This document shows positions 11,590-46,622 of a DNA stretch of 64,000 nucleotides, in pieces. Location of the stretch: the NCBI GenBank assembly GCA_027050205.1, contig JALUCS010000083.1:3036-67035 (forward strand), read 5' to 3'. The first letter of the stretch is position 1. Every line of letters starts with the position of its first letter. This DNA is from a candidate division WOR-3 bacterium. GTDB lineage: Bacteria; Hydrothermota; Hydrothermia; LBFQ01. The notes beneath the pieces are model-generated. The model was not told the DNA's origin. It ran no database searches and saw only the letters and a list, made by a program, of their open reading frames with translations. Both the position numbers and the translations under genes were made by a program.

Positions 11590-13231
11590 ATTTCAATCCC
11601 TTATAGGTAGGCTGCAAACGACTGAGGAAGAACTTGATAAAATACTTGATATTCTCGTTTCAATCCCTTATAGGTAGGCTGCAAACAGCCGAGCGACTTT
11701 GGGGACATGCTACCACCTAGACTGTTTCAATCCCTTATAGGTAGGCTGCAAACTATATCGGCTTCAACAGAAGTCAAAACTCTTCCCCCAGTTTCAATCC
11801 CTTATAGGTAGGCTGCAAACAAGACGTATCCCTTGACAGAGGAAACGAAATAGTTGGGTTTCAATCCCTTATAGGTAGGCTGCAAACTACGAAGTCGTCT
11901 CCGCCCTCGGACTCCCCTTCCATAGTTTCAATCCCTTATAGGTAGGCTGCAAACAAAGGGTGGCGTCCTGACCGTTAGACGACGGGGGCATAGTTTCAAT
12001 CCCTTATAGGTAGGCTGCAAACTATGTAAGAAAAGAGAGGAAGTTTTAGAGCTGATACGGTTTCAATCCCTTATAGGTAGGCTGCAAACCTGAGCCATAT
12101 GAGGGGGAGGTCTATGATAACGTTCTGTTTCAATCCCTTATAGGTAGGCTGCAAACACAGACCCGGAGAAACCTCGTCCCCCAGCGTGGGGGGTTTCAAT
12201 CCCTTATAGGTAGGCTGCAAACCCTTACGCCCTCGGTGCCACGGAGGTGGCACGTATTAGTTTCAATCCCTTATAGGTAGGCTGCAAACCGTCCTCTCCG
12301 CCCTCGTTCGCCGCCTCGCTCTATCCGTTTCAATCCCTTATAGGTAGGCTGCAAACTCTCAAAACCTCCCTCGCCGAGTTCATCCCTGAATCTAGTTTCA
12401 ATCCCTTATAGGTAGGCTGCAAACTGACCAGTATAGAAAAGGCACTCCGGGACCTCCCCGAGTTTCAATCCCTTATAGGTAGGCTGCAAACTCAAAATGG
12501 GACACATATGTTTCTATATCAACCTTTTGTTTCAATCCCTTATAGGTAGGCTGCAAACTCTTTACCCTGTCCCCTACCCGCCCCGCCCCCCGGTTTAGTT
12601 TCAATCCCTTATAGGTAGGCTGCAAACGACCGTTTTTTTACGTCGGATACCGGAAACGGGTTGGTTTCAATCCCTTATAGGTAGGCTGCAAACCTGACGC
12701 TTTCGTCGTTCAGGCGATAGCACGAAATTAGTTTCAATCCCTTATAGGTAGGCTGCAAACCCGACTATCCTCTCTTTAGGGAGATTGAAGAATTTTGGTT
12801 TCAATCCCTTATAGGTAGGCTGCAAACCTACCTCATCCTTTCCCCCGACGAATTCTATCTTATCGGTTTCAATCCCTTATAGGTAGGCTGCAAACCAGCA
12901 ATCTGCCCGACTTTACGTCGGGACGAATATATGTTTCAATCCCTTATAGGTAGGCTGCAAACTTTGATTTCCTTTTCGTGTCCAAATACAATATTAGCTG
13001 TTTCAATCCCTTATAGGTAGGCTGCAAACTCATAGGAGCCGCTATCTGGTCAGCGTGGAGAGGGTAGTTTCAATCCCTTATAGGTAGGCTGCAAACAACA
13101 ATAGTTATCATCTAATATCCCTACTTTCGGATTGGTTTCAATCCCTTATAGGTAGGCTGCAAACTCCCCTCCGTTCTCCTCTCCCTCATTCGGGAGAGGG
13201 CGTTTCAATCCCTTATAGGTAGGCTGCAAAC
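11590..13231 (-). CRISPR. CRISPR array with 25 copies of a 30-bp repeat and 24 spacers of about 36-38 bp; crRNA is read on the minus strand
   Basis: The + strand repeat is GTTTCAATCCCTTATAGGTAGGCTGCAAAC. Its reverse complement ends ...ATTGAAAC, matching the 8-nt 5' handle of type I-B repeats. The repeat at 11590 is degenerate (A for G), as expected for the leader-distal end. Confidence 0.97.
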
Positions 13232-22135: not shown

Positions 22136-22876
22136 ATGATCAGAATTGACGTCACCTTCTCCTCCGACTCCCCCATCGTCCTCCCTGTGCATTACAACGA
22201 ACACATTCAGGCCCTCATATACCACCACTTAGACCCCGACGTAGCCCGGAGGCTCCACGACGAGGGCTTCAGGTACGGAAAGAGGAGGTTCAAGCTCTTC
22301 ACCTTCTCCCGCATATTCGGAAGGGGACGTTATGACAGGAAGAACAGACTCCTGACCTTCCCGCCGAGGATCCGCATAGCCTTCGCCTTCGCCGTTGAGA
22401 GCGTAGGGAGGTCCTTCTTGGACAGGATGGTCAAATCCGACCCCATCGTCCTTGAGGGCAACCTCCTGAAGGTGGCCGAAACCCGCATTACCATTCCGGA
22501 GGTGGGGAGGGAGGTTAAGGTGAAGGCCCTCTCCCCCATAACGGTGTACCGCACGGTACTTGAGGGCGGCAGGAGAAGGACCGTCTATTTCCCCCCAGAC
22601 TCCCCCGAATTCGCTGGCTTAGTTAAGATGAACCTGCTGCGGAAGTACGAGACCCTCTACGGCAGGGAGTATTCGGGTAGGTTAGAGGTTGAAACCCTGC
22701 GGAAGGGTAGGATGGCCATAGTGAAGTACAAGGGGACGGTGATAAAGGCGTGGGACGGCACCTTCCTCCTGAGGGGGGAACCGGATATCCTGCGGCTTGC
22801 CCTCGGTGCCGGTCTGGGGGCGAAGAACAGTCAGGGCTTCGGAATGATCCAACAGATACGGAAGGGAAACCTATAG
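22136..22876 (+). CDS. cas6: Cas6 endoribonuclease (crRNA processing)
   Basis: C-terminal glycine-rich loop LGAGLGAKNSQGFGMIQ. Length is 246 aa. It is oriented opposite to the rest of the operon. Confidence 0.8.
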   Translation: MIRIDVTFSSDSPIVLPVHYNEHIQALIYHHLDPDVARRLHDEGFRYGKRRFKLFTFSRIFGRGRYDRKNRLLTFPPRIRIAFAFAVESVGRSFLDRMVKSDPIVLEGNLLKVAETRITIPEVGREVKVKALSPITVYRTVLEGGRRRTVYFPPDSPEFAGLVKMNLLRKYETLYGREYSGRLEVETLRKGRMAIVKYKGTVIKAWDGTFLLRGEPDILRLALGAGLGAKNSQGFGMIQQIRKGNL

Positions 22877-22898: not shown

Positions 22899-23282
22899 TC
22901 AGTGCAGGAAGAACCCGAAGGTCACCTTACCGCTGCACCCGTCCGGTACGTTGGGGGCAAACTTCCACTGGCGAACGGCGGCTACGGAGGCGCTATCAAG
23001 GATGGGGTAGCCGCTGGACTTTATCACCTTCAGGTACTTTATCGTGCCGTTGGAGTTGAGGACCACCCTTACGGTCACTTCTCCCTCCCAACCGTTGCGA
23101 CGGGCAACCTTGGGATATATGGGCTTCACCTTTCGGATGACCTTCCCCTTCAGGCAACCTTCCAAAGAACCGGAGGATTCGGAGGTCCTCGCAGTGTTCG
23201 GAGGATTGGAGGCGTACGATGGAAGGGTACCCGCCGCAACTAAGGCGACGATAAACATTACCAAACCTTTACTCATACCCAT
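22899..23282 (-). CDS. TonB C-terminal domain protein with signal peptide
   Basis: KPIYPKVARRNGWEGEVTVRVVLNSNGTIKYLKVIKSSGYPILDSASVAAVRQWKFAP matches the TonB_C fold pattern. Confidence 0.65.
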   Translation of the reverse strand: MGMSKGLVMFIVALVAAGTLPSYASNPPNTARTSESSGSLEGCLKGKVIRKVKPIYPKVARRNGWEGEVTVRVVLNSNGTIKYLKVIKSSGYPILDSASVAAVRQWKFAPNVPDGCSGKVTFGFFLH

Positions 23283-23319: not shown

Positions 23320-24597
23320 CTACCTCGTGAGGTAAAGGTTCAGGCCGACCTTTACGCCGGTGAAGGGGGGTTCGTAGCGGCACACCCCGGAGGAGCATAC
23401 GACGTCGCCGGAGAAGGAGCCGTAGGAGGCGAAGACCCGCAGGAAGGAGAAGTTGTCGTAGGACACCTCAAGGACGCGGTCCGTCTTCTTAGAGAGGGCG
23501 TAGTACCGCCCGGAGAGGGAGAGGGTGAGGCCGCCGTAGATGAAGGTCAGGGAAGCATAGGGCTGGTCCTCCCACTCCCCGTGGGGGAGCCTCCTCCTGT
23601 ACTCGGCGTATGCCACGACACCCAGGGGGGCGTTGTACTTCACCTCCAAGAAGGCCTGCCTCTCATTAAGGTTGCCCTCCCAGTCAAGGTGGTGGGACCC
23701 CACCTTGAGGGTGAAGGGGCCGACGTCCCTGTAGTAGGAGGCGGCGTAGTACTTCATCACGAGTTCCCCGTCGTGGGAGTAGGACCTTCCCAGCTCTAAG
23801 GATAGGGTGGTGTAGGAGAGGTAGACGTTGCCGCCCATCTCGTCCCTACCTTCCGTTGGGAGGAGGCCGTAGCCGTTGGCTGGCGTCGGCAGGTTGAACT
23901 CCTCGTATATCCGGTAGTAGTCCTTCGCCTCCGCACCGAGGACGAGGTTCTCCCTGGCGTACTCAAGGTTCCCGTAGAGGGCGTAGCCGTAGTTCCGGCC
24001 GTAGGTGGCGAGGTCGTAGCCGTAGCGGTAGGCCCCCTCAAGGTAGAGGGCAACGGGGCCGAGGGGGAGGGTGGCGTAGGCACCCGGCAGGACCCCATAA
24101 CCCTCGCGACGGCCGTAGGCGTCGTAGAGGGAGAGGTTGAGGCCCGCCTCCCCGAAGGGAAGACCGGGGGTGAGGGAGAGGCCGGCGAGGAGGAGGGTGT
24201 CCCTGTCCGAGGAGTAGTATATCCACCTCCGTTTCAGGCCGGCGTAGGCCCGGAGGAAGGAGTAGTTCAGGTGTATGCCCCGCAGGGTGGCCTCAAGGAG
24301 GGCCTTCTCGTCGTCCGCCAGAAACAGGGAGAGGCCCCGCCCGAAGGTTAGAGGCTCGTCCCCTACAGAAACCCCAAGGCCACCGAAACTCCTCCGTACG
24401 TAGAATCGGAAGGCGTTCAGGGCGTAGGTATCGCCGTGGAGTTGGGCGGGGGCGTAGGGCCTGTAGTCCCGCAGGTGGAGGAAGACCTCCCAGCCGTACG
24501 GGTAGGCCGTCACCTTAACCTCGTTCAGGCTCTTCACGCTGTCCGCGTACCAAAACGTGCCGCCGTAGGAGGCGGAGAAGGCGAGGAGGTGTATCAT
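23320..24597 (-). CDS. putative outer-membrane beta-barrel protein (hypothetical)
   Basis: Tyr/Gly-rich sequence with alternating hydrophobic residues throughout, and no motif I recognise. Confidence 0.35.
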   Translation of the reverse strand: MIHLLAFSASYGGTFWYADSVKSLNEVKVTAYPYGWEVFLHLRDYRPYAPAQLHGDTYALNAFRFYVRRSFGGLGVSVGDEPLTFGRGLSLFLADDEKALLEATLRGIHLNYSFLRAYAGLKRRWIYYSSDRDTLLLAGLSLTPGLPFGEAGLNLSLYDAYGRREGYGVLPGAYATLPLGPVALYLEGAYRYGYDLATYGRNYGYALYGNLEYARENLVLGAEAKDYYRIYEEFNLPTPANGYGLLPTEGRDEMGGNVYLSYTTLSLELGRSYSHDGELVMKYYAASYYRDVGPFTLKVGSHHLDWEGNLNERQAFLEVKYNAPLGVVAYAEYRRRLPHGEWEDQPYASLTFIYGGLTLSLSGRYYALSKKTDRVLEVSYDNFSFLRVFASYGSFSGDVVCSSGVCRYEPPFTGVKVGLNLYLTR

Positions 24598-25007
24598 TTC
24601 AGGTTGAGGGCGCGTCTTATCATCTCAACGAGGCGGGGGTTGAAGCCGAAGATCTTCTTCTTCATCCTGCCGCCCTTCTCGTAAGCTATGACGGTGGGGA
24701 GGCCGAAGACCCCGTACTTTGAGGAGAGCTTCTTACCCTCGTCTATGATTATGGGGAAGTCCCAGCCGTGGGATCTGGCCATCTGGCGGACACGGTTGAT
24801 GTTCCGTTTGGAGTCCTGACTTATGGCCACTATGACGACGTCCTCACGCTTTCCGAAGGCCTCGTTCAACCTGTCCAACTCCTCGTCGCAGTGGTTGCAC
24901 CAGGTGGCCCAGAAGTCAAGGATAACGTGCTTCTCCCTCATCAGGCTATCCACGTTCACCCTGTTGCCGTATATGTCCGTCGCTACGAAGGTCAAGAGCC
25001 ACATCAT
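24594..25007 (-). CDS. TlpA/ResA-like thiol:disulfide oxidoreductase (thioredoxin fold)
   Basis: WATWCNHCDEE CxxC motif and FGLPTVIAYEKGG. The ORF track extends to 25199, but the upstream extension (RRGHH...) looks non-coding, so I start at the internal MMWLL. Confidence 0.75.
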   Translation of the reverse strand: MMWLLTFVATDIYGNRVNVDSLMREKHVILDFWATWCNHCDEELDRLNEAFGKREDVVIVAISQDSKRNINRVRQMARSHGWDFPIIIDEGKKLSSKYGVFGLPTVIAYEKGGRMKKKIFGFNPRLVEMIRRALNLK

Positions 25008-26071
25008 TGCGATATCACCCTCACCTTGAGCTGCCTGAAGACGCGGGGGTCGTCGTTGAGATACACCCTGACGGTTATATCGGCCGTATCTACGGTGGTG
25101 GGATAGACGGCGAAGTACATCCCATGCTCCGGCGTGGTGGCCCCGGCGGGGAGGGTGTTGCTCACCATGTTGGTGTCGCTGAGGCACATCCCCCAGCATA
25201 TCGTGTTGTTCCAGTCCCTCGGTATCCCGGAGAGCTTGAAGGTCAGGTTGAGGTCCCTGTTAGCGTGGTTCTCCATCTGCAGATATACGGAGGTGTACTG
25301 GTTGAGGGGGGCGGTCGTGTCCCCGTCGTTGGAGACGTTGGAGAGGAGGTAGGTCTCGGCCTTACCCTGATAGGCTCCTACCACCTTCTTGTCGGAGGAG
25401 TTCACGATCACCGTCACGTAGAGGTTGGCCGTATTCCAGGAGGTATCCACGACGAACTCGGCATGGGTGGAGTTGGTGCCGGCCCTAACGGCGTAGTTGG
25501 AGTAGGGCTTCACCGAGCCGGAGGGGAGGGGTACGTGGTACTCGGTCAGCATAGTGCGCACAACGTCGGAAGCCGCCTTTCCGGGGTTGAGGGAGACGTC
25601 TATGACGGCGAGGGAGTCCCCTATGAGGGAGGTCGCCGATACGGCGTACTTCGGGACGTTCTGTCCCCTCTCAAGGATGAGGTTGTTCCACTTCTCAACG
25701 TAGTCGTCCCTGCGGGTGTCGTCGTACCCGTGTTCGCTGTAGTCCCCACCTATTACGGTTATGGGGACGCCGTCGGAGGTACTCAGGCCGTAGAGGGAGA
25801 GGATAGAGTCGGTGTAGGGGGTATAGACGGGGTCCCCCACGTAGGGGTCGTTGGCGTGGTACCGCACCACCACGAGCTTGTCGCCGTAGGCCTCGTCAAG
25901 GGAGTCTATTATCTCGTTGGCCCCCTTACAGGGTACGCACATGTAGTTGGTGACCTGCTCCACTACGACGGGGTAGGGGAGGGCCTCCTCGGCCCCCCCG
26001 TTCTCATCCTTCTTACAGGCGGCCAAGACCACAAGCCCGGCCGTCAGAACTGCAAGAGCCTTCCGTACCAT
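25004..26071 (-). CDS. lipoprotein with thioredoxin-like CxxC N-domain (hypothetical)
   Basis: Lipobox LVVLAAC. NYMCVPCKGANE is followed by HANDPY...VPITVIGG. The same domain pattern recurs in the upstream 607-aa protein. Confidence 0.5.
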   Translation of the reverse strand: MVRKALAVLTAGLVVLAACKKDENGGAEEALPYPVVVEQVTNYMCVPCKGANEIIDSLDEAYGDKLVVVRYHANDPYVGDPVYTPYTDSILSLYGLSTSDGVPITVIGGDYSEHGYDDTRRDDYVEKWNNLILERGQNVPKYAVSATSLIGDSLAVIDVSLNPGKAASDVVRTMLTEYHVPLPSGSVKPYSNYAVRAGTNSTHAEFVVDTSWNTANLYVTVIVNSSDKKVVGAYQGKAETYLLSNVSNDGDTTAPLNQYTSVYLQMENHANRDLNLTFKLSGIPRDWNNTICWGMCLSDTNMVSNTLPAGATTPEHGMYFAVYPTTVDTADITVRVYLNDDPRVFRQLKVRVISQ

Positions 26072-27867
26072 TTCCTACCGCCTATTCTAACCTCGTAGAA
26101 GTACACGCCCTTGGGTAGGGAGGTGCGGTAAGTGGTCTCGCCCTTGAGCTTGAAGGCGTCGGAGAGGATCAGCCTGCCGTCCGCCGTGTATATCTTCACC
26201 CTGACGTCCTTACTCTCGGAGGAGTACAGGTGTATCCCGCCCCTTTCGGGCCTTACGCGGGCTATCCAGCCCCTCCGGGCGTCGGGATTCTCGGCAACAT
26301 CCACCGAACTAGAGAATTTGAATGTGCCAACGCCCCAGACGTTGTGGTCGTCGTCGCTCTGGACGAAGAGGACGGCCACGAGGTGGTTTATGTCCAGGCC
26401 CGGATCCGAGTACCAGGTCGGGTGGGGGAGGAAGAAGTCAAGGGAGTAGGTGGTGGTCCCACCGGTGTCCGTAGCCGTATAGGAGGTGTCTATCCAGTGC
26501 CTGAAGGTCATAACGTGGAAGGTGGTACCGTTGGGAGCGTTGTAGTTTATGCTGTCCTGCACTATCACGACGCGCAGGTTGTAGGGCTTGGGTACCATCG
26601 CCCCTATCTGGTGGACGGTAAAGGTTATGCGGCCGTGTATCCCATCGGTGTCCTCGTAGACGTAGGTGTTGGAGGAGGAGGTATCAACGATGAACTCCAT
26701 CGGGGTCTTGCGGTAGCTCTCTTCGGAGGCGACGGCGCTCGCCCAACTGGTGTAGTAGTACGCGGCGTTATAGACGCCATTCACATAGACCCAGGGGACG
26801 GCACCGACGTGGTAGTAGAAAACCCTACGCCTCTGTGGCATGGTGTCGTACTTGTAGAAGGGGTCGTTGTTGCTTCCGGGCCACCAAACGTGGTAGGTTA
26901 TCATTCCGATATGGTAGCCGGAGGCGTCCACGTGGGAGTTGTATATACCCAACTGGTAGGGGTCAGCGGAGTGGCATGGGCCGCAGTTGTGCTGGGTGAA
27001 CCTCTCAAAGAGGACCATCATAGGCCTGTCGTAGGCGTAGATGTACCCGGTCAGGGTGTCATTGCCGGCATTCTCGTCGCTGGATAGCTCGGTTATGATG
27101 TAGTACTTGTAGTAGTACAGGTTGTTGGGGGTGAAGGAGGGAAAAGAGACGGAGGCCGTGTCAAAGGGACCGAGGGCGCCGGTGTAGGTAGTGGTCTGGT
27201 CGTAAGCGACGTTCCCGTAGGGGTCCTCAAATATCAGCCTGACGGGTACGGTGTTTATGCTGTCAAGGCCGTAGTTCTGTATCCTGGCTCTTGGGGTGAA
27301 GGACGAGGACTGGTATTCAGGGTTCGTCAAAGCGACGGGGCGGGCGTCAGTGTTGTAGGGTACGTATATCTCAACGTCGTCTATATACCAGTTGTCGGCG
27401 TCCGTACCGGTGTAGCGGAAGGCCACGTATACGGTTGAGTTCCCTACAAAGGAGGAGAGGTCTACCACCACCGGGTCCCCGTCAAAGCCGTTTATGGCGT
27501 GATCGTCCGGCGTCATATCCAAGACGAGGGTGAAGGTGGAGGTGTCCGTCTGGGAGGTGGTTGAGACGAGTATCTGGTGGTGATCCCCGTACCCGCTCCA
27601 GTAATCCTGATCCTCGTAGAAGATGAGGTAGGCCTTTGTCGCCGTTGACAGGTCTACGGCAGGGGCCACCAACCACTCGTCCTTGGTGTTGGAGGAGGGA
27701 TAGTAGTTCACCTTGGCGGCGTAGTCTCCGGAGTGAACCTTCATAGCGGTCTGATACCACGAGTCTCCGGTCGCGCTGCCGAGGTCAAGGACCTCCCATC
27801 CTGCCGGAGGTACGGAGGTCTCAAAACTTTCACTAAGAAGGGAACCTGATGCTATGAGGAACCACAT
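26044..27867 (-). CDS. secreted protein with CGPC thioredoxin-like motif and T9SS-type C-terminal sorting domain
   Basis: FTQHNCGPCHSADPY...WWPGSNNDPFY...VPWVYVNG is paralogous to the 355-aa lipoprotein domain. The C-terminal ~80 aa (KIYTADGRLILSDAFKLKGETTYRTSLPKGVYFYEVRIGGRKWYGRLLQF) look like a Por/T9SS CTD. Confidence 0.5.
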   Translation of the reverse strand: MWFLIASGSLLSESFETSVPPAGWEVLDLGSATGDSWYQTAMKVHSGDYAAKVNYYPSSNTKDEWLVAPAVDLSTATKAYLIFYEDQDYWSGYGDHHQILVSTTSQTDTSTFTLVLDMTPDDHAINGFDGDPVVVDLSSFVGNSTVYVAFRYTGTDADNWYIDDVEIYVPYNTDARPVALTNPEYQSSSFTPRARIQNYGLDSINTVPVRLIFEDPYGNVAYDQTTTYTGALGPFDTASVSFPSFTPNNLYYYKYYIITELSSDENAGNDTLTGYIYAYDRPMMVLFERFTQHNCGPCHSADPYQLGIYNSHVDASGYHIGMITYHVWWPGSNNDPFYKYDTMPQRRRVFYYHVGAVPWVYVNGVYNAAYYYTSWASAVASEESYRKTPMEFIVDTSSSNTYVYEDTDGIHGRITFTVHQIGAMVPKPYNLRVVIVQDSINYNAPNGTTFHVMTFRHWIDTSYTATDTGGTTTYSLDFFLPHPTWYSDPGLDINHLVAVLFVQSDDDHNVWGVGTFKFSSSVDVAENPDARRGWIARVRPERGGIHLYSSESKDVRVKIYTADGRLILSDAFKLKGETTYRTSLPKGVYFYEVRIGGRKWYGRLLQF

Positions 27868-27964
27868 ACAGGGGTATTTTAAGGGGGAGGATGAGTCTGT
27901 GAAAAGGATGTTTGAGTTGTAGAATCCAACGCCCCTTCGGGCTTAAAATCCCCTTCAAAGGAGG

Positions 27965-29428
27965 TTGATAATGAGGGTAATGCTGAAAGTCCTTGTGGGT
28001 CTAACCTTGGGTCTCTCTGGGCTGTACGCCCAGACCTGTCCCTCCGGATGCTCCACCATCACGAGCGGCTCCCTAACCTTCTGCAAGTGCAACATCTACA
28101 CCACCTCCGAGCCGTCGGACAGGGTCCAGATGGTCACGGACCAGTACATCACTATCGTGGATGTGGACGGAGACGGGCTTAAGGACATACCCTTCGGTGT
28201 ATTTTACTACGGCAGGAACGGCACCTACGTCCTCCGTCAAACCTCTGCCGGCATCCCTGGAACCTTCGTAGAAGTCCAGATTTCCGATACCCCCGGCTAC
28301 GGCATAGCCTCCTTGGGGGACCGGAACGGGGACGGCCTTGTGGATTTCGTCATCAGTACCCATGGGGTTCTGCACAAGGTCTATACCCTGATGTCCCCAG
28401 GTTCCCTCGGTCCCTACACCGTAACCCCCATCTACACGGGTTCCCATCCCAACTCCGTCACCGTCTCCCCCACTGGAATATACTTCACGGACTACGATGG
28501 CTCCATAAATTACTACGATTTCTCCACTGCCACCATCACGAGGCGGGACGACGACCTCTGTGGCGATGGGGTGGCCTTCGGAGACTTCAACGACGACGGA
28601 TATACGGACGCCGTATGCTCCAACTACGGTGGAGTCTTCTCACTCCCGGTGGGCCTCCACGTGTATTGGTACAACGGTTCGGGTTTCACGGGTTATACCA
28701 CCCTTGATAACGCCCGGAAGTGGCAGGGCATCGTAGCCTACGACATGGACGGGGATGGGAGGAAGGACGTCATAGGTACGGGGGAGGACGTGAGCGTCTT
28801 CTACAACGACGGCTCCTCTTGGACGGAGGTGCGCCTCAACTCCACGACCGTTAGCGTTGGGGTAGGTAGCCTGCCCCTCGTGAGGGTGAACCTCGCTGAT
28901 CTGGACTGCGACGAGGACCCCGATATAGTCGTAGCCACCGCCTGTCCCCCTTCGGGAGGGGCTACCCTTATGTGGTACGAGAACCTCGGAGGCCGGGCGT
29001 GGGAGGAGCATCCCATAGACTTCGGGGGGAACAGTTGCTCCAGCGACTACCCCTACCCTTACGGGGTGCGTGTGGGCCTCCTTGACGAGACTACGGACAC
29101 CGGGAGGGCGGACATCGTGATCGTCTACGGTGCGAGCAACTCCATCTACGCGTACTACAACGTAACCCCCTCCATCAGCTGTTCCCCTCTGGCCTACGAA
29201 GGGGACCTTACGGTATCCGAGTTGGACGATGGGGAGTGGTTGGCCGTGGTACCTGTGCCGAAGGGGATACGGATAACAGCCCGGAGGGCCTCAAAGGTCG
29301 CCGTCTTTAGGGCTGACGGCTCCTCCCTCTTCCAAGGGACGGTTGAGGGGACGGAGTACCTACGCCTACCTCCCGGCGCGTACTTCGTAAGGGCGGAGGG
29401 CCGGACCTACCGGGTGGTGGTGAGGTAG
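27965..29428 (+). CDS. FG-GAP/VCBS-repeat protein with T9SS C-terminal domain
   Basis: Signal peptide MIMRVMLKVLVGLTLGLSGLYAQ. Repeated D-x-[DN]-G-D-G-x-x-D motifs (DVDGDGLKD, DRNGDGLVD, DMDGDGRKD). C-terminus ...PPGAYFVRAEGRTYRVVVR. Confidence 0.6.
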   Translation: MIMRVMLKVLVGLTLGLSGLYAQTCPSGCSTITSGSLTFCKCNIYTTSEPSDRVQMVTDQYITIVDVDGDGLKDIPFGVFYYGRNGTYVLRQTSAGIPGTFVEVQISDTPGYGIASLGDRNGDGLVDFVISTHGVLHKVYTLMSPGSLGPYTVTPIYTGSHPNSVTVSPTGIYFTDYDGSINYYDFSTATITRRDDDLCGDGVAFGDFNDDGYTDAVCSNYGGVFSLPVGLHVYWYNGSGFTGYTTLDNARKWQGIVAYDMDGDGRKDVIGTGEDVSVFYNDGSSWTEVRLNSTTVSVGVGSLPLVRVNLADLDCDEDPDIVVATACPPSGGATLMWYENLGGRAWEEHPIDFGGNSCSSDYPYPYGVRVGLLDETTDTGRADIVIVYGASNSIYAYYNVTPSISCSPLAYEGDLTVSELDDGEWLAVVPVPKGIRITARRASKVAVFRADGSSLFQGTVEGTEYLRLPPGAYFVRAEGRTYRVVVR

Positions 29429-29435
29429 ACCGCCC

Positions 29436-30928
29436 TCATCGGACGAGGACCTTTCCGACCTTCCCGCCCTTAACGACGAAGTATATGCCCCTCCCCATCC
29501 TCTCCACCCTCCTGCCAGCGACATCATAGACGGTGCCGTCCTCCGGAACGGACGGGCCGGGACGGGAGGCTACGGAGGAGGGGAGGTCGTTCAGGAAGAT
29601 GAAGTTCCCGCGGCTGTCCTCCCAGTTGCTCACCGTTATATCGGCGTAGGGGGTGTATGTGTAGGAGACTACCAACGCAGAGGAGGGGCCAACGGAGTCG
29701 GAGGGGACGGACAGATACCCGCTTTCGTACAGTAGGACGTAGGGGACGGGACGACCGTCAAGCCTTACGGAGTTTATGGATACCACCGGGGAGTGGGACA
29801 ACCTCACTACATTCCGGGGAGGGGAGAGGGTGAAGGTGTCCGAGATGGGGACCGCAGCGTTCAGGTCTATGTCCCCCAGGACGATGTTTTCGGCAACTAA
29901 GTCGTAATAGGGGGTGGGCTGCCAGTACCATACGGGGGAGGAGGAGAAGGTACCGCCAAGGTTTTCAAAGAGGACGAGGGGGTCCCACCATCCCCCTCCT
30001 ACGAGGTCCGGGTCTCCGTCCCCATCCACGTCCCCCAAGGCCACGGCCGAGTGGTACCTACCCGGATCGTAGGCCACCCACGAGGGGGAGGTCTCAAGCG
30101 TCCCGCCGACGTTCAGGTAAAGCTCAAACCGGCTCCGGGCGGTGTCCATTTGGAAGGTGTTGGCGACGACGACGTCCACCCATCCGTCCCCGTTCACGTC
30201 CCCTACGGCTATACGGTTGGCAAAGCCGAGGCTGTCGCTCTCCCAGACGGGTACCGTATCCAAGTAGCCGCCGAGGTTGAGGTAGAGGCGGTGCCTTCCA
30301 GGGGAGAGGCCGAGGAAGAGGTCCAGGTCCCCGTCGTTATCCACGTCAAGGAAGGCCGCCCCAAGGGAGTAGATGGAGTCCGGGGTCTGCCAGACCGGTC
30401 CGACGAGGGTGGAACCGTCCGATACGTAAAGCTGGGCAGGTTGGGGGTCGGAGGAGTAATCGTTCCCACAGGAGAAGAGGAAGTCGGCGAGACCGTCCCC
30501 GTTTACGTCCCCGCTGGCCACACCGAAACACCTACCGCTGTCCGACGTCCAGACCGGTAGGGGCAGGAAGGTGCCTCCATCGTTAAGGTAGAGGGCGTTC
30601 ACCTCCATGTTCCATCCTGCACCGTACCCGCTGAATCCGGCCACAGCGAGGTCCATATCCCCGTCCCCATCTACATCGCCGAGGGAGAGGTGACCATGGT
30701 ACCGGGCGACGGAGGAGGACCAGGAGGGTGTGGTGAAGGGTAGAGGGGACGCACCGAGATAGACCTCAACGCTCTCGCGAGCCATATCGTTGCCGTTGGA
30801 GACTACCAAGTCCGGATAACCGTCCCCGTTTACGTCCCAGACGGCCAGACCCGTAGAGTAATCCCCCGACTCGGACTCCCACGAAGGAGCGGAAGGGAAA
30901 CCGCCAAACAGTATAACGAAGACAGTCA
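29436..30928 (-). CDS. FG-GAP/VCBS-repeat protein with T9SS C-terminal domain
   Basis: Many DVNGDGxxD and DVDGDGDxD repeats. C-terminus GIYFVVKGGKVGKVLVR. The ORF track starts at 31178, but a signal-peptide-like MTVFVILFGGFPSAPS at about 30928 is the likelier start. Confidence 0.6.
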
Positions 30929-31622
30929 TCGCCAAGATTCTAAGGGGAGAAGACGGGCGGGAAACTTTGGTATTCAACGGATGGAACAAGGCACCCTCCG
31001 AAGAGCCACCCCACATCACCGGTGCCAGGAGCTGAAGCCGGGTTACCGATTTTCTGTAGTCCAATTGCGATTGCGTTCTATCGGTGTAATACCCGGATTT
31101 TAAACCCTTGGAGGAGGGATGCCGTACCCGATTTGGAATGCACCACAGGGCCAAGCGTTGTAATACTTGTCCTATCACCGAAAAACTACGTATTTTTACA
31201 AGTTTATGACTTAATATGGCAAAATTTTACTCAAAAATTGATGTATATTGTCGTTTGATGACGACATCAAAATTCACAGCAGGGATTACGACCGAACCCT
31301 TCACCACTTCGGAAAGAGCAGGGTGCGGACGGTGGGCTACCCTCATCAGCGAAATACCGAAACTTCCCATCGCCCGCAATTTGGCGCCGCATCGGCCATC
31401 CCCAAACCTTTGCCGGTGTCCCGTATTTCCCTTTTCGTTCTCCGAATACCATCCCCCGGAGTTCGGGACTTTCGGTCATAGTCTCCGCGTGAAACGGTGG
31501 GAAGTTTGAGCTTTAAGGTCTGGATGCGGTATAAATCGGTAAATTTTAACTGTGATGCAAAATTAGACGAATTTTGGAACTTTTGGCCTTTCCCCTCCGT
31601 AGCCGCCTTAAAGTCCGTCCTC

Positions 31623-32688: not shown

Positions 32689-33510
32689 ATGAGGAAGCTA
32701 TCCATCTTTCTGGCGATTGCTGTAGTGGGGGTTGCTGGATGCAAGAAGGCTGCACCGACGACCTTCATAAAGGCGGGGAGCTTTTATCTGAACTATCCCG
32801 GAGGACAGTCCAGCATCCACGACGTCCATATAACCACCGTTAGCCCCAACTACCTTCCCACCATAACTATAAACGGACGCACCGTCCAAAGGGACCGCAT
32901 TGAGACAGGATGGGGCGAGTACTACGCCCAAGACACCCTGCCATCGGTGTCGCCGCAGACGGAGGTAGAGCTTAAGGTGACCTACTACAACCTCAACGAC
33001 GAGCAGAAAGAGGCCTCCGCCAAGGTGAAGCTCCCTCCGGAGCCGCAGGGGATGGCCCTAAGCACCAACGGTGGTGAGGTGAACGTATCCTGGAACAAGC
33101 CCGATAAGAAGAACACCGACTTCATCTACGTGAGTATAGACGCCGTATGCTCGGACGGGGTGATTTACCAGAGGGCCACCGTTGACACCATAATAGCCGA
33201 CATAGAGAACGTCACGTCCGTGACTCGGTCCCTCGGTAGCATCTGCGACGAGATAGACCCTATCCTCACTGCTTGGGTCTTCGCCGCCGTCTTCAATATG
33301 CAAGGCCCTTGGAGCGGCGATAAGGACAACGTCAAGGGGGCCAAGGGCCAGTACTACGGAGGTGCCGGAAAGGCCGATACCGCGAGCTACGTATCCTCCT
33401 CCTCCCTCAAGAGCAGTTACTCCCCCTCCTTCCCCGATGCGGATTGGGGTAAGAGGATCCTCAAGGCCCTCGGTAAGTACGCGGACGAGGGCAACTGGAT
33501 AGGGATGTAA
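32689..33510 (+). CDS. lipoprotein, tandem paralog B (hypothetical)
   Basis: See paralog A. Its upstream region also shares ccttaRARtccgtYctcATGa with paralog A. Confidence 0.6.
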   Translation: MRKLSIFLAIAVVGVAGCKKAAPTTFIKAGSFYLNYPGGQSSIHDVHITTVSPNYLPTITINGRTVQRDRIETGWGEYYAQDTLPSVSPQTEVELKVTYYNLNDEQKEASAKVKLPPEPQGMALSTNGGEVNVSWNKPDKKNTDFIYVSIDAVCSDGVIYQRATVDTIIADIENVTSVTRSLGSICDEIDPILTAWVFAAVFNMQGPWSGDKDNVKGAKGQYYGGAGKADTASYVSSSSLKSSYSPSFPDADWGKRILKALGKYADEGNWIGM

Positions 33511-36094: not shown

Positions 36095-36877
36095 TTACCA
36101 GCAGATGCCGAAGTCCGCCTTGCCGACGTCCTCCTTCAGGTTGTTTAGCGGTATAACCACCACCCCCCTTTCACCGGTCATACGCTCTACCCTGTTGGGT
36201 ATTCCCAGGCGGTTATACACGTGGCCAGAGCCTACGAGGACGACTACCCTACGGCTGGGTTCCCTCTTGAGGTACTTTGCTATGGCGTAGGCCATACCCT
36301 CGTCCCAGATTATCATCGCCTTGAGGAAGGTGTTGAGGGTCTTTTCGTCAAAGTGGGCGTGGCCTCCCATCATACTCTTGAACTGGGCGATGTACGCGCT
36401 GTCAGGTTCCTGGAGGTCCGGAGGGAGGAGAGGGGTCTTTCGCATACGCTCGTAGGACATCCTCTTGGCCTTCTTGCGGAAGTTATCGGGGACGTTTATG
36501 GCCAGCATGGGTACTTTGTGTTTTCTGGCGAAGAGCCACGTTTTGCGGTAGAGGCCTATGTCGTACTTCCAGGTCTCGTGCCATCGGGCTTTGTAGAGCA
36601 TTACCACCTCGTGTATCTTGCCCTCCACGTACTCGTCCAGATACGGTTGGGCCGGCTGCTGGAACATTTCGTAGGCTATGGTGAGGTTGCTGTCCCTCTC
36701 GTAGAGCGACCTTATGACCTCCATCTGGAAGTCGTGGACCTCCTTGCTGGTATGGACCTCTCCGAGGTATACGACCCTCGCTTTGGTATCTATTATGCGG
36801 TTTATTAAGGTGTCAAGGGGCACTCTCTCCCCGCTTTTGAGGTCGTACAGGCAGGAAGCAACGAGCGTTAGGAGCAT
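36095..36877 (-). CDS. ChaN/TIKI-superfamily (heme-binding uptake-like) protein
   Basis: GEVHTSKEVHDFQ ... LVGSGHV ... pattern of the ChaN/TraB/GumN family. Start taken at MLLTLVASCLY. Confidence 0.55.
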   Translation of the reverse strand: MLLTLVASCLYDLKSGERVPLDTLINRIIDTKARVVYLGEVHTSKEVHDFQMEVIRSLYERDSNLTIAYEMFQQPAQPYLDEYVEGKIHEVVMLYKARWHETWKYDIGLYRKTWLFARKHKVPMLAINVPDNFRKKAKRMSYERMRKTPLLPPDLQEPDSAYIAQFKSMMGGHAHFDEKTLNTFLKAMIIWDEGMAYAIAKYLKREPSRRVVVLVGSGHVYNRLGIPNRVERMTGERGVVVIPLNNLKEDVGKADFGICW

Positions 36878-36885
36878 AGACGGGA

Positions 36886-37539
36886 TTATACGAGGGTCGG
36901 GTAGAACAGGAGGAGGGCCAGGAGGGAGGCCCAGAGGGCAAGGACGAGGTTCTCCCACTTTACGAGGAACATCTCAACTATACCCACGGCCGCACCTAAC
37001 AGGAGGAAATCAAGGGGAGCGTCAAGGACCAGACCCACCACACCCCCCCATACCACAAAAGCGAGGAACCCCGTCAGGGTCTTGCCGTTCAGTACCTTAG
37101 GGCCACCGATGGACTTGCCGGTGAGGGAGGCCAAGGCGTCCCCCGGAACGGAGATGGCCAAACCGAGGAGGGCGTATTTCCCAAAGAGGGATACGGATAG
37201 AGCCACACCTAAGGTCATAAAGGTGGCGTCGCTAATCTCCCGCCTTTCCCTGTCCTTTATGAACCTCCCCGTTATACCCTCAAGGAGGTCGTAGAGGCGG
37301 GCGTACTCCGGCAAAAGGACACGAAAGTAATCAAGGGCAGCGACGTAGAGGACGGAGGCCCAAGTGAAGAGGGGGTCGGAGAGGAGGTAGAGGAGGAGGG
37401 CGTAGGCGTAGGAGGAGAGGTGGAAGGTCTTGCGGAAAAGCTCCCCTTCTAAGGCTTGAAGCCAACGAGGTAGGTAACGAGGCTGTCCGAGGCGGTTATG
37501 GCGACGTTCTTTACCGGTCCTATGCCGCTCTTCCACCAT
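36886..37539 (-). CDS. CTP-dependent lipid kinase/cytidylyltransferase-family membrane protein (CdsA / dolichol-kinase-like)
   Basis: Polytopic membrane protein with GDALASLTGKSIGGPK near the C-terminus. The start is uncertain because the ORF overlaps the upstream gene by 90 nt. Confidence 0.45.
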   Translation of the reverse strand: MVEERHRTGKERRHNRLGQPRYLPRWLQALEGELFRKTFHLSSYAYALLLYLLSDPLFTWASVLYVAALDYFRVLLPEYARLYDLLEGITGRFIKDRERREISDATFMTLGVALSVSLFGKYALLGLAISVPGDALASLTGKSIGGPKVLNGKTLTGFLAFVVWGGVVGLVLDAPLDFLLLGAAVGIVEMFLVKWENLVLALWASLLALLLFYPTLV

Positions 37540-43055: not shown

Positions 43056-43471
43056 CTCCCGACCTCCTTGGTTGAGACTATCTTGGTGCGGACGGGGAGC
43101 TTGGAAGCCGCGGTCTTGAGGGCCTTGATGGCGTCCTCTTCCTTGGCGCCGGCGATCTCAAAGAGGATGGTACCGGGCTTTACGACGGCGTACCAGGCGT
43201 GGACGTCCCCCTTACCGCCTCCCATACGGACCTCTGCGGGCTTCTTGGTGTAGGGCCTGTGGGGGAAGATGCGGATCCAGAGTCGGGCCTTCTTGCCAAC
43301 GGCACGGACTATGGCGACGCGGGCGGCCTCTATCTGCCGGGCGAAGACCCTACCCCTGTCTATGCTCTTTAGGGCGTAGTCGCCGTACTCTATGCGGTTC
43401 CCGGCCGTGGCCACCCCCTTGAGCTTGGCCCTGTGTTGCTTCCTCCACTTCACACGGCGGGGCTGCATCAT
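43052..43471 (-). CDS. rplP: 50S ribosomal protein L16
   Basis: MMQPRRVKWRKQHRAKLKGVA. Confidence 0.92.
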   Translation of the reverse strand: MMQPRRVKWRKQHRAKLKGVATAGNRIEYGDYALKSIDRGRVFARQIEAARVAIVRAVGKKARLWIRIFPHRPYTKKPAEVRMGGGKGDVHAWYAVVKPGTILFEIAGAKEEDAIKALKTAASKLPVRTKIVSTKEVGR

Positions 43472-44142
43472 GGCTTTACCTCCTTCTTACCGCGGAGGAT
43501 GTCCCCCTTGTATATCCAGACCTTCACACCGATGGTTCCCCACTTGGTGAAGGCGGTGTCGTACCCGTAGTCTATGTTGGCTCGGAGGGTCTGGAGGGGT
43601 ACCCTTCCCTTGATGTACCACTCCTTACGGGCTATCTCGGCCCCGCCTATACGTCCCTTCACCTGTACCCTTATCCCCTTGGCGCCCATCCTCATGGCGG
43701 AGTAGACCGCCCTCTTCATCAGGCGGCGGTGATAGACTCGCTGCTCAAGGCGACGGGCTATGTTGTATGCCACGAGCTGGGCGTCAAGTTCGGGGTGGGT
43801 TATCTCCTGATGCTCAACGAATATCCTCTTCTCCGGCCCCCCGAAGGTCTTGTTCAGGGCCTCCCGGAGTCCCTCTATGTTCTTTCCGCCCTTACCGATT
43901 ATCACACCCGGACGGGCGGTGTGTATGGTGACGTGTACGTTCAGGCCCACACGGTTTATGGTTATCCGGGAGATCTGGGGGTCGTTGGGGAGCCTCCTGT
44001 AGTACTCGGTTATGAACTTCCTTATCTGGTAGTCCTCAAGGAGGTTCTGAACGTACTCCTGCTTAGTCTCGGCGTACCAGATTGACTGCCAGGGCCTGAA
44101 GTACCCCGTCCTAAGTCCGATAGGGTTGGCTTTCTGACCCAT
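43468..44142 (-). CDS. rpsC: 30S ribosomal protein S3
   Basis: [25 protein letters not shown]. Confidence 0.92.
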   Translation of the reverse strand: MGQKANPIGLRTGYFRPWQSIWYAETKQEYVQNLLEDYQIRKFITEYYRRLPNDPQISRITINRVGLNVHVTIHTARPGVIIGKGGKNIEGLREALNKTFGGPEKRIFVEHQEITHPELDAQLVAYNIARRLEQRVYHRRLMKRAVYSAMRMGAKGIRVQVKGRIGGAEIARKEWYIKGRVPLQTLRANIDYGYDTAFTKWGTIGVKVWIYKGDILRGKKEVKP

Positions 44143-44570
44143 TACTTACCCTCCTTCTTTACGTCGGGCAGGACCACTACGGTTATGTGGGAGGTCCTGC
44201 GCCTGAATATTCCGTTCCCTCCGAAGCGGGCGGGCTTCACCGCGGGCTTGGGTATCTTCCACATCGGTCCCCTGTCCACCTTCACGATGGCTATGCGGAG
44301 GTAGGGGTAGAGGTCATCTACGCTCTTGTCGGGGGCGAACTTGTCCCTGTAGGAGGCGACGGCCGCCCGGAGGACCTTGCGCATTATGCGGGCGCCTTTC
44401 TTGGGCGTGAACTGGAGGACGTAGTCGGCCTCCTGGACGTTCATCCCCTTTACGAGGTCGGCGATGAGCTTCATCTTCTTGGGGGATATCCTGGCCCTGC
44501 GGAGGGTGGAGTACCCACCTACGGCCTTCCACTCCCTCTTGGTGAGCTGCCCGAAGGGTCTAACCTTCAT
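44142..44570 (-). CDS. rplV: 50S ribosomal protein L22
   Basis: [23 protein letters not shown]... Confidence 0.9.
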
Positions 44571-44851
44571 TTCCTACCCGCCTTCTTGCCCTCTTTGTCC
44601 TTATGCCCTCCGAACTTGCGGGTGGGGGCGAACTCTCCGAGGCGGTGTCCCACCATTTCCTGGGTGACGTAGACGGGTATGAAGGTCTTGCCGTTGTGGA
44701 CGAGGAAGGTCAGGCCTATGAACTCCGGCAGGATCATAGACGCCCTGGACCACGTCTTTATGGGGGTCTTGTCCCCCTTCTCCAGAGCCTTACGCACCTT
44801 CTTAAGCAGCTTTGGATGTACGTACGGCCCCTTCTTCAGGCTTCTGGCCAT
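44567..44851 (-). CDS. rpsS: 30S ribosomal protein S19
   Basis: [19 protein letters not shown]...[29 protein letters not shown]. Confidence 0.92.
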
Positions 44852-44855
44852 AACT

Positions 44856-45704
44856 TCACTCCTTTGATCCGTATCCTATCCTCCGACGCTTGACGATGAA
44901 GGTGTCGGAGGGCTTCCTCTTTCTGCGCGTCTTAACGCCGCGGGCGATCTTACCCCAGGGCGTCTTCGGTATCTTACCCTTGGTGCGGCCCTCACCGCCT
45001 CCGTGGGGGTGGTCTACGGGGTTCATTGCGACGCCCCTGACGGCGGGACGGCGTCCGAGCCAGCGGTTCCTGCCAGCCTTACCGAGGGTGACGTTCTCGT
45101 GGTCCACGTTGGAGACCTGTCCGACGGTGGCGTAGCAGTTGTGGTGAAACTTCCGGATCTCCTTTGAGGGGAGCTGGACGTATATCCAGTTCTCGTCCTT
45201 GGATAGGATGGTGGCGTAGGTGCCGGCGGCCCTCACCAGCTGGCCGCCCTTACCCGGTATTATCTCAAGGTTGTGGATTGGCGTTCCCTCCGGTATCTTC
45301 TCAAGGGGTAGGGCGTTCCCTATCTTTATGGGGGCGTCCGGTCCGGCTATCACCTCGTCCCCCACCTTCAGGCCCTCCGGGGCCAGTATGTACCGCTTCT
45401 CCCCGTCCCTGTAGGCCACCAACGCTATGAAGGACGTCCGGTTGGGGTCGTACTCTATGGACTTAACTATGCCGGGAACGCCCACCTTGTCGTGGCGCAC
45501 AAAGTCTATTATGCGGTACTTCCTCTTGTTGCCTCCGCCCCTGTGGCGGACGGTTATCTTACCCTGATTGTTCCTCCCGGCCTTCTGCTTCTTGGGTTTC
45601 GTCAGGGACTTCTCCGGCTCCTCCTTGGTTACGTAAGCGGAGTAGTCTATAACGCTCATCCAACGGCGGCCGGGAGTGTAGGGTTTGTACTTCTTAACGG
45701 GCAT
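44856..45704 (-). CDS. rplB: 50S ribosomal protein L2
   Basis: [18 protein letters not shown]...[17 protein letters not shown]. Confidence 0.93.
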
Positions 45705-45705
45705 A

Positions 45706-46002
45706 TCACACCCCCAGGTCTATCCTGTGGCCCTCGGCCAAGGTCACGATGGCCTTCTTGTACCTGCTCGTGCGTCCTATGATGCGACGGCGACGGAGGT
45801 CCCTGCGGGGCTTGGGTTTGTAGTTCATCGTGTTGACCTTGACGACCTTGACCCCGAATATCTTCTCAACGGCCTCCTTTATCTGGTGCTTGTTGGCGTC
45901 AGGATGCACTATGAAGGTGTATTTGTTGTACACGTCCCGTAAGTACAGGGCCTTCTCCGTAAGGACCGGTCTTATCAGTACCTCCTCGTAAGAGAGTTTC
46001 AT
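45706..46002 (-). CDS. rplW: 50S ribosomal protein L23
   Basis: Position between rplD and rplB, with the KYTFIV...KVNTMN pattern. Confidence 0.85.
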
Positions 46003-46622
46003 AGCAGCCTCTCCTTCAGTTTATCTATCGCCCCATCCTCCGCGACCACGTAGTCGGCCCAGAGGACGTAGTAGGTGTTCAGCTGATCTGCGTGGAGGAC
46101 ATGGACGTCGGGGATGTTGCGGGCGGAGAGGTAGAAGGTGCGGTTGTAGTCCTTCGGTACGAAGAGGACGTTCTTCCCGACCAGACCCACGCTCTTGAGG
46201 AAGTTGTAGACGGTCTTGGTCTTGGGCTGCTCCAGGCTCATGCTCTCAAGCAGGAGCAGGCGCTCGTTCTGCGCCCTGTCGGCGAGGGCCATACGGAGGG
46301 CGAGCCTCTTGGCCTTCTTGGGCATCTTTATGTAGTACTCCCTGGGTCTGGGGCCGTGGGCCTTCCCTCCTCCCACGAATATGGGGGCGTACCTGTCCCC
46401 GTGCCTGGCCCTACCCATGTGCTTCTGGGGCCATATCTTCCGGCGGGAGCCTTTCACCTCGCCGCGGGTCTTGGCGTGATGGGTCCCCTGTCTCTGGTTA
46501 TACAAGTAGGCCCTGACGGCCTCCCACAGTAGGTGGCCGTTGGGCTTTATTCCGAAGAAGTCTTCGGGGAGGTCCCGCTCGCCCTTCTTCTCTCCGGTTA
46601 TGCTGTAGATAGGGGCCTTCAT
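45999..46622 (-). CDS. rplD: 50S ribosomal protein L4
   Basis: Position and size (207 aa), with GRARHGD and PIFVGGGKAHGPRPR. Confidence 0.88.
   Translation of the reverse strand: MKAPIYSITGEKKGERDLPEDFFGIKPNGHLLWEAVRAYLYNQRQGTHHAKTRGEVKGSRRKIWPQKHMGRARHGDRYAPIFVGGGKAHGPRPREYYIKMPKKAKRLALRMALADRAQNERLLLLESMSLEQPKTKTVYNFLKSVGLVGKNVLFVPKDYNRTFYLSARNIPDVHVLHADQLNTYYVLWADYVVAEDGAIDKLKERLL

Follow-up and report, generated by a model that had tools for sequence, protein, structure and literature searches.

A stretch of 64,000 nucleotides from a candidate division WOR-3 bacterium (assembly GCA_027050205.1, contig JALUCS010000083.1, positions 3,036 to 67,035 of the forward strand; referred to as the window) carries a minus-strand operon of four genes, which is a real unit and is read from position 27867 to 23320 in the order P5, P4, Trx137, and barrel. 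The products are a multidomain protein that resembles HBP35 of Porphyromonas gingivalis (P5), a lipoprotein with a paralogous CxxC domain (P4), a ResA/TlpA-like thioredoxin (Trx137), and a predicted beta-barrel related to the family DUF6029. In alignments of homologues, an invariant Cys pair was present in each of the four. With about even confidence, the operon is proposed to encode an outer-membrane-associated thiol:disulfide oxidoreductase module specific to a WOR-3 lineage.

An earlier, sequence-only reading of the window had placed a gene cluster at 24594-30928. This span includes the thioredoxin-motif genes; it omits the barrel gene (23320-24597) and takes in two FG-GAP genes that are not part of the unit. 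The features listed in that reading, namely, the WCNHC, CVPC, and CGPC motifs, the paralogous CxxC domains, two FG-GAP proteins, a TonB C-terminal domain (TonB-C) protein, and a beta-barrel, were all recovered from the open reading frame (ORF) listing, the family scans, and the predicted folds. As an observation of the sequence it was largely right, and its interpretation was partly right.

Operon structure and conservation

The features of the operon are the following, with positions in nucleotides (nt) of the window and in amino acids (aa) of the proteins.

27876..27903, minus strand: promoter-like site, sigma-70-like TTCACA-16-TAAAAT, from a consensus scan
26044..27867, minus strand: gene 1, P5, 607 aa, motif HNCGPCH, from the ORF listing and family scans
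P5 aa 10-167, minus strand: choice-of-anchor J/cleaved-adhesin-like domain, NF038128, 83.8 bits
P5 ~aa 175-277, minus strand: Ig-like domain, from the predicted fold
P5 aa 282-385, minus strand: HBP35/Omp28-like thioredoxin fold with C295-G-P-C298 (CGPC at nt 26974-26985) and cis-Pro358
P5 aa 390-520, minus strand: beta-sandwich, from the predicted fold
P5 aa 536-607 (nt 26047-26262), minus strand: shortened C-terminal domain (CTD) like that of type A cargo of a type IX secretion system (T9SS), TIGR04183 match at aa 544-599
25004..26071, minus strand: gene 2, P4, 355 aa, lipoprotein MVRKALAVLTAGLVVLAAC with lipobox LAAC and motif YMCVPCKG, 28-nt overlap with gene 1
25928-25939, minus strand: P4 C45-V-P-C48, paired with cis-Pro103, alignment invariants
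25183-25197, minus strand: P4 conserved Cys pair C292/C296 in an extra C-terminal beta domain, alignment invariants
24594..25007, minus strand: gene 3, Trx137, 137 aa, FWATWCNHC, with W36-C-N-H-C40 at nt 24888-24902, from Pfam/NCBIfam
23320..24597, minus strand: gene 4, barrel, 425 aa, Tyr/Gly-rich DUF6029-like predicted beta-barrel, start overlapping the Trx137 stop by 4 nt
23362-23397, minus strand: barrel C401-SSGV-C406-RYEPPF motif (CSSGxCRYEPPF), invariant

According to the ORF listing, the P5/P4, P4/Trx137, and Trx137/barrel junctions overlap by 28, 4, and 4 nt. Related loci were obtained from homologue searches and from scans of genome and metagenome collections and were compared by tblastn of the window proteins; the named records among them are of candidate division WOR-3, with a few labeled Thermotogota or Thermotogae. 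The gene order was the same in all 12 distinct loci (L002/3/15, L005/8, L006, L007, L009-L014, L019, and L022), with junctions abutting or overlapping, at protein identities to the window from 85% down to ~36-43%. Proteins identical to those of the window were found in the NCBI metagenome-assembled genome GCA_015494805.1, whose contig, L001, comes from the same organism. Except in L001, the TonB-C gene, both FG-GAP genes, the two paralogous lipoprotein genes downstream, and cas6 had no tblastn match in the fetched loci. Since the order was kept and these neighbors were unmatched, the conserved unit comprises the four genes at 23320-27867, and the operon as a whole has been found so far in uncultured WOR-3 bacteria only.

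The -10 box of the promoter-like site ends 8 nt upstream of the P5 ATG. The TAnAAT box and its spacing of 8-9 nt to the ATG were kept in seven related loci in which the remaining upstream sequence has diverged, and therefore the P5 start codon is real and the operon mRNA, probably transcribed from a single shared promoter, probably lacks a leader.

Parts of the operon were also found in more distant organisms. A thioredoxin-DUF6029 gene pair with overlapping junctions was present in two of them, L016 and L017. Locus L016, from a distant, high-GC uncultured bacterium, carries four Omp28-like ORFs, three of them with classic CTD ends, an Omp28-like lipoprotein, and a TlpA-like thioredoxin and a DUF6029 barrel that both have normal signal peptides. 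In L017, the start of a canonical 551-aa DUF6029 gene overlaps the 3' end of a gene for a 191-aa TlpA-like lipoprotein. A metagenome scan for more DUF6029 loci returned six, all from the same clade as the operon, so that the generality of the pairing rests on L016 and L017. P5-like genes in other lineages (~30% identity; L004, L024, and L025) stand alone, without the operon partners.

Irregular copies were seen at three loci. The P5 homologue lies in two ORFs at L011 (6600-8539) and L012 (6929-8610), with the body and the CTD in separate frames or pieces; a frameshift, an error of assembly, or decay to a pseudogene could account for this. On the metagenome contig L021 (7358-9167), Trx137 and the barrel are retained, P4 is reduced to its last ~80 residues, and the sequence upstream is unrelated, as would be expected if the region had been rearranged or the contig were a chimera.

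Families and predicted folds of the four proteins

P5 is a multidomain protein that resembles HBP35 in sequence profile and predicted fold. The AlphaFold2 model (predicted local distance difference test [pLDDT] of 90.2, from a 55-sequence alignment) has beta-sandwiches at aa 9-168, 175-277, and 390-517, then a linker modeled with low confidence and, at aa 536-606, a last sandwich. Its thioredoxin fold has the classic beta-alpha-beta-alpha-beta-beta-alpha order, with a strand at 286-291, the CGPC at the N terminus of a helix at 296-312, and Pro358 ahead of the strand 359-362. A structure prediction of this kind had been suggested as a check on the CxxC domains; run on P5, it returned the expected thioredoxin fold around the CGPC. 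Both C295 and C298 were invariant in the alignment of 55 P5 homologues.

The best Foldseek match of P5 in the PDB was HBP35 (5y1a; E of 3e-13, TM-score of 0.58 on the target, 16% identity), and the remaining matches were generic multi-sandwich glycosidases. The P5 family profile matched the same structure with an E of 3e-4 over 278 positions; further profile matches were the Kgp cleaved-adhesin domain 4itc, the structure 2l0d, Atu2684/DUF1223 (2axo), FlgD Ig domains, and T9SS CTDs (PorU, 8glj). HBP35 of P. gingivalis is a surface protein with CxxC-dependent thioredoxin activity that binds hemin and is required in low hemin (PMC2907840), and its secretion via the Por/T9SS system is reported (PMC3120885). 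In P5 aa 282-607, a CxxC thioredoxin fold, a beta-sandwich, and a T9SS-type CTD succeed one another as they do in HBP35 (PGN_0659, PDB 5Y1A). In comparison to HBP35, P5 has additional N-terminal choice-of-anchor J and Ig domains, a shortened CTD, and no classic signal peptide, and its gene shares an operon with the genes for the paralogous lipoprotein, the ResA-like thioredoxin, and the DUF6029 barrel. The N-terminal cleaved-adhesin-like domain, as recognized from its sequence, suggests the capture of an external macromolecule.

P4 and P5 are paralogs. The relationship was weak in BLASTP (26% identity over 81 aa, E of 2e-4); comparison of the family profiles aligned P4 32-245 with P5 282-520 at an hhalign probability of 99.0% (E of 9e-18, 199 columns), which bears out the paralogy of the two CxxC domains that had been seen by eye. 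The shared part spans the thioredoxin domain and the beta-sandwich that follows.

A search with the P4 family profile of 1.84 billion representative sequences retrieved 383 proteins at E <= 1e-3. P4 and 71 of these relatives were scanned with Pfam, and matches to Omp28 (PF11551), DUF1223 (PF06764), and Por_Secre_tail were obtained for 62, 40, and 16 of the 72 sequences, respectively; P4 itself had none. All 62 PF11551 matches were thus to relatives, and the homology of P4 to Omp28 is transitive only. No PF11551 match was found for P4 or for the central domain of P5, and the isolated CxxC domains of both proteins had no match in Pfam; some P5 homologues carry weak PF11551 matches. Residues E38, C45, C48, P103, and E177, which include the active-site CxxC and the cis-Pro, were invariant over the 72 sequences. 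The Omp28 (PF11551/NF033782) and DUF1223 (PF06764; PDB 2AXO) families have the invariant E, the CxxC, and the cis-Pro in common with P4, and Omp28 proteins are lipoproteins as well, according to the NCBIfam name "Omp28 family outer membrane lipoprotein." P4 differs from both families in its extra C-terminal domain with the Cys pair, and P4 and P5 score below the curated models. In a literature search, no paper was found in which the function of Omp28 or of DUF1223 is established.

Trx137 matched AhpC-TSA (60.3 bits), Redoxin (46.8 bits), and Thioredoxin_8 (39.4 bits) in Pfam, all above the gathering cutoff (GA), and its closest solved structure was ResA (4nmu, E of 2e-20). Because this alignment begins at residue 6, the protein is a bare soluble domain. 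The WCxHC and the cis-Pro loop GLPT were invariant among its homologues. Trx137 shares with ResA, TlpA, and CcmG the whole soluble domain as aligned to ResA, the WCxxC, and the cis-Pro loop. It differs in scoring below the equivalog cutoffs (73.4 bits against 170 for ResA, NF002854, which was its top NCBIfam match, and 26.4 bits against 230 for TlpA), in the lack of an anchor or signal peptide in WOR-3, in having a DUF6029 barrel as partner, and in a position that is not beside cytochrome c maturation or CcdA genes.

The start of Trx137 is M65 of the thioredoxin ORF at 24594-25199; its ATG overlaps the P4 stop as ATGA, and the homologues, called at 133-136 aa, align from this Met. The whole ORF was not accepted as a 201-aa thioredoxin, since codons 1 to 64 run over the conserved P4 C terminus in a different frame, are basic and nonhydrophobic, and are missing in the homologues. 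The sequence-only reading had described an exported TlpA-like thioredoxin with the motif WATWCNHC. Motif and family were confirmed by Pfam and by the match to ResA 4nmu; export is not shown, with ~5 residues left ahead of the domain when M65 is the start. No membrane anchor, lipobox, or signal peptide was found in Trx137 by inspection and alignment. Its orthologs in L016 and L017 do bear signal or lipoprotein peptides.

The barrel was connected to DUF6029 by several lines. Its C-terminal 37 residues align to the last part of the family's Pfam model (PF19494; 26.2 bits, GA of 27), 9 of 16 homologues are precomputed as PF19494, one homologue with 44% identity is named a DUF6029 family protein, and a profile with one canonical member links the barrel to the family. 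The AlphaFold2 model from 16 sequences (pLDDT of 83.3) is a closed antiparallel barrel of ~24-25 strands, the first of which begins at residue 7. Residues GRGL 86-89, G397, C401, G404, C406, R407, P410, F412, and G414 were invariant in the 16 barrels, including the canonical DUF6029 protein P0101. In the model, C401 and C406 lie in the hairpin between the last two long strands, which by the usual topology of outer membrane proteins would place them on the extracellular or lumenal side. The C-terminal CSSGxCRYEPPF region, the prediction of a large barrel, and the PF19494 homologues are thus in common with DUF6029; the operon barrel has no signal peptide and falls ~110 aa short of the 538 positions of the model.

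A short Cys-pair hairpin was seen repeatedly, as ICWGMC in the C-terminal domain of P4 (CFRGVC in L002) and as CSSGVCRYEPPF at the C terminus of the barrel. It also occurs as FCDSTVCYDPPF in a 251-aa CTD protein at L016 7579-8334.

A proposed redox module and the export of its parts

In the proposed module, the barrel would sit in the outer membrane as a platform or conduit for two proteins of the Omp28/HBP35 type, P4 tethered by its lipid and P5 by its CTD. The ResA-like thioredoxin would hold the CxxC sites of P4 and P5, or the Cys pair of the barrel, in a working redox state, and the complex would, at the cell envelope, reduce or isomerize disulfides or bind a thiophilic ligand such as heme or a metal. 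The location of the four proteins, the substrate, and the direction of electron flow are, like their physical association, what we infer in this proposal.

Several points weigh against it. The association is read from synteny. No electron donor of the CcdA/DsbD type was found in or beside the operon. P4 scores 24.2 bits against the Omp28 model NF033782, whose cutoff is 150, and the Cys pairs of the barrel and of the C-terminal domain of P4 could form disulfides with a structural role. The only literature found on DUF6029 (PMC9603273) proposes polysaccharide export. Finally, P5, Trx137, and the barrel of WOR-3 begin with Met and 5-10 hydrophobic residues, have no basic n-region, and pass directly into a folded domain.

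These N termini were judged by inspection and alignment. P5 starts with MWFLIASG followed by SLLSESFE, Trx137 with MMWLLTFVA followed by TDIYGN, and the barrel with MIHLLAFSASYGG. Upstream in-frame extensions of the three genes were not found in any locus. Distant P5 homologues have classic signal peptides of 20-30 aa, and ordinary signal or lipoprotein peptides were seen on the remote counterparts at L004, L016, and L017. Normal signals were also present in the same window, in P4, in the 487-aa FG-GAP protein, in the TonB-C protein, and in the adjoining lipoproteins. P5 retains a small-x-Gly motif at positions 6-8. The short hydrophobic N termini may be minimal signal peptides or the mark of another export route. 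Two further proteins of the window, the 580-aa FG-GAP protein (MTVFVILFGGFPSAPS) and the product of the ORF at 59556-60446 (MFLLTLLLEASGG), were also seen to lack a basic n-region.

The short N termini of three of the four proteins, a CTD that has lost its first-strand motif and ~10 aa in comparison to classic homologues, and the P5 copies in two ORFs at L011 and L012 would fit cytoplasmic or decaying relics no longer active at the envelope, which is very improbable given full-length conservation with invariant catalytic residues over the 12 loci even at the lowest identities, N termini that are themselves conserved as hydrophobic segments, a beta-barrel that cannot fold in the cytoplasm, and the perfect lipobox of P4.

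A more specific version of the proposed redox module is speculative and is given little credence. It would consist of a thiol-disulfide relay across the outer membrane, from Trx137 at the inner face through the Cys pair of the barrel to the CxxC sites of P4 and P5 at the surface, or of a barrel that serves as an export or anchoring device and replaces the T9SS for proteins of this lineage whose CTDs are vestigial and whose canonical signal peptides have been lost. The trans-outer-membrane conduit MtrCAB is a functional analogy only; the operon has no hemes or cytochromes and no sequence relationship to it, and its centers would be cysteine pairs.

Neighboring genes and competing explanations

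The other features of the window are listed below; all surround or lie apart from the operon.

22899..23282, minus strand: TonB-C protein, 127 aa, with a signal/anchor sequence, TonB_C PF03544 79.7 bits, TIGR01352 69.7 bits
27965..29428, plus strand: FG-GAP/VCBS protein, 487-aa ORF (FG-GAP-487), canonical signal peptide, FG-GAP_3 68.6 bits in 4 stretches
29436..31178, minus strand: FG-GAP protein, 580-aa maximal ORF (FG-GAP-580), FG-GAP_3 140.4 bits in 6 stretches, FG-GAP 78.1 bits
31497-32474 and 32689-33510, plus strand: tandem pair of paralogous lipoproteins (56-58% identity), both with a lipobox, no Pfam/NCBIfam match
36095-36958, minus strand: ChaN-like heme-binding uptake protein, Cofac_haem_bdg 180 bits, a few kb from the cluster, without synteny to the operon elsewhere
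11590-13231: CRISPR array, 25 repeats, Rfam CRISPR-DR2, ~67-nt period
1313-2227, plus strand: ankyrin-repeat protein, 304 aa, Ank_2 182.8 bits, a family unusual in a bacterium
47603-48823, minus strand: EF-Tu, from Pfam

The sequence-only reading had combined the thioredoxin genes and both FG-GAP genes into one surface redox and adhesion locus whose products carry T9SS sorting tails in an organism that has a T9SS, and this explanation is unlikely. Two FG-GAP/VCBS-repeat proteins are indeed encoded there, as their FG-GAP_3 scores attest. FG-GAP-487 likely starts with the ATG at 27971 and would then have 485 aa; the real start of FG-GAP-580 is probably near 30929-30935, giving ~499 aa, and the NCBI call is 499 aa. 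FG-GAP-487 is transcribed divergently from P5, and FG-GAP-580 is convergent with FG-GAP-487. Neither FG-GAP gene was found within 8-10 kb of the operon in any of the 12 other loci.

Of the three tails described as T9SS-like, that of P5 passed one CTD model, TIGR04183 (29.5 bits for the full protein and 33.6 for the tail alone, cutoff of 23), and stayed under the threshold of the other, PF18962 (17.5 and 21.7 bits, cutoff of 27). The FG-GAP-487 tail aligned with TIGR04183 from end to end, below threshold (13.2 bits, E of 0.065), while the tails of FG-GAP-580 and of P4 matched neither TIGR04183 nor PF18962. The FG-GAP tails have V.V.D..G and G.YFV....K..V.R motifs; in FG-GAP-580, the CTD-like stretch is confined to the last ~33 residues (VYDVAGRRV...GIYFVVKGGKVGKVLVR). 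Against hidden Markov models (HMMs) of the P5-family CTD and of its WOR-3 subset, the two FG-GAP tails scored ~3 bits, and only P5 matched among the window ORFs; hhalign to the P5 family gave probabilities of 6% for FG-GAP-487 and 8% for FG-GAP-580. Because the FG-GAP genes are on other transcription units and are missing in the 12 loci, and because their tails fail the CTD models, adhesion is not supported as part of the unit. The redox part of the claim is supported, as redox of an envelope or surface type, with Cys-pair proteins in one conserved operon and an HBP35-like P5.

P5 is like T9SS type A cargo in its terminal beta-sandwich (strands at 536-606 in AlphaFold2) that passes TIGR04183, and one homologue bears the NCBI name "T9SS type A sorting domain-containing protein." It differs in a CTD below the Pfam threshold and in the absence of a classic Sec signal. 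The CTD of distant P5 homologues is classic (NYPNPFNP.T.I.F...V.IYD..G..V..L.........W.G.D..G..V.SG.YFY......S.T.KM.L.K); in comparison, that of WOR-3 P5 is without the NPFNP first-strand motif and ~10 middle residues. A Pfam scan of 40 other window ORFs (in two batches, one of them with concatenated ORFs), which left out the presumed cas genes and a few others, detected no T9SS component. Literature searches gave no paper in which WOR-3 is linked to the T9SS, to PorV, or to secretion. One degenerate CTD, passing one of two models on a protein without a canonical Sec signal, does not allow the conclusion that type IX secretion operates in the organism. Fuller CTD-like ends were seen on unrelated large WOR-3 ORFs, at L012 18584-21199 and L011 19493-21223 (both on the minus strand), with ~25 bits to the P5-family CTD HMM over positions 5-84, and CTD-type sorting may therefore occur in the phylum.

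Acquisition of heme or a metal, with P5 and P4 as HBP35-like surface binders, the barrel as the channel, and the TonB-C protein as the energizer, is unlikely as well. HBP35 binds hemin and is needed for growth at low hemin (PMC2907840), the N-terminal domain of P5 is like the gingipain cleaved-adhesin (hemagglutinin) domain 4itc, and the TonB_C gene follows the barrel gene, with the ChaN-like gene at 36095-36958. The TonB-C protein and the beta-barrel beside the thioredoxin genes, both described from the sequence, were upheld by the TonB_C score and by the AlphaFold2 barrel. A gap of 37 nt separates the barrel gene from the TonB-C gene downstream, whose product has no Pro-rich spacer and scores below all full-length TonB equivalogs; the TonB-C gene may be cotranscribed with the operon, in this genome only. 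Against a role in acquisition, neither the TonB-C nor the ChaN gene is syntenic with the operon elsewhere, the barrel matches no TonB-dependent-receptor or plug-type family and its N terminus enters the first strand directly, and the invariant features are CxxC pairs, which point to redox chemistry.

It is quite unlikely that the DUF6029 barrel is a polysaccharide-export or general porin, with Trx137 as its dedicated folding factor and the Omp28-like genes as unrelated cargo. Plug-less Wzi-like barrels show HHpred similarity to DUF6029 and have a proposed role in polysaccharide export (PMC9603273), and L017 has the thioredoxin-DUF6029 pair without Omp28-like genes. However, at none of the loci is the operon flanked by genes for OPX, Wzx/Wzy, or glycosyltransferases, the arrangement of four genes whose stops and starts overlap is kept over deep divergence, and L016 independently joins four Omp28-like ORFs to the thioredoxin-DUF6029 pair.

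Elsewhere in the window, the tandem lipoproteins were seen in addition only in the NCBI contig of the same organism. After the CRISPR array, large minus-strand ORFs from 14806 and a plus-strand ORF at 22136-22876 look like a type I cas operon, presumed from their appearance, which adjoins the TonB-C gene. The ORFs beside EF-Tu (43468-47287) are ribosomal-protein-like in their translations as judged by eye (uS3, uL2, uL4, and uL3); EF-Tu and these putative ribosomal proteins would be usable as phylogenetic markers to place the organism.

The operon is a lineage-specific assembly of known, poorly understood families. The CTD-like tails on the adjoining FG-GAP proteins establish neither type IX secretion nor a common function. 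The conserved absence of canonical signals from a barrel predicted for the outer membrane, and from its partners, poses a small but genuine puzzle for protein export in an uncultured phylum. HBP35-type surface thioredoxins reach well past Bacteroidota, and in WOR-3 they are part of a dedicated operon. If true, the proposed relay would do with cysteines what the MtrCAB conduit does for electrons. Two families without known function, DUF6029 and Omp28/DUF1223, are tied to a ResA-type thioredoxin by strict operon conservation, and the operon thereby offers a testable hypothesis of thiol-disulfide chemistry at the outer membrane.

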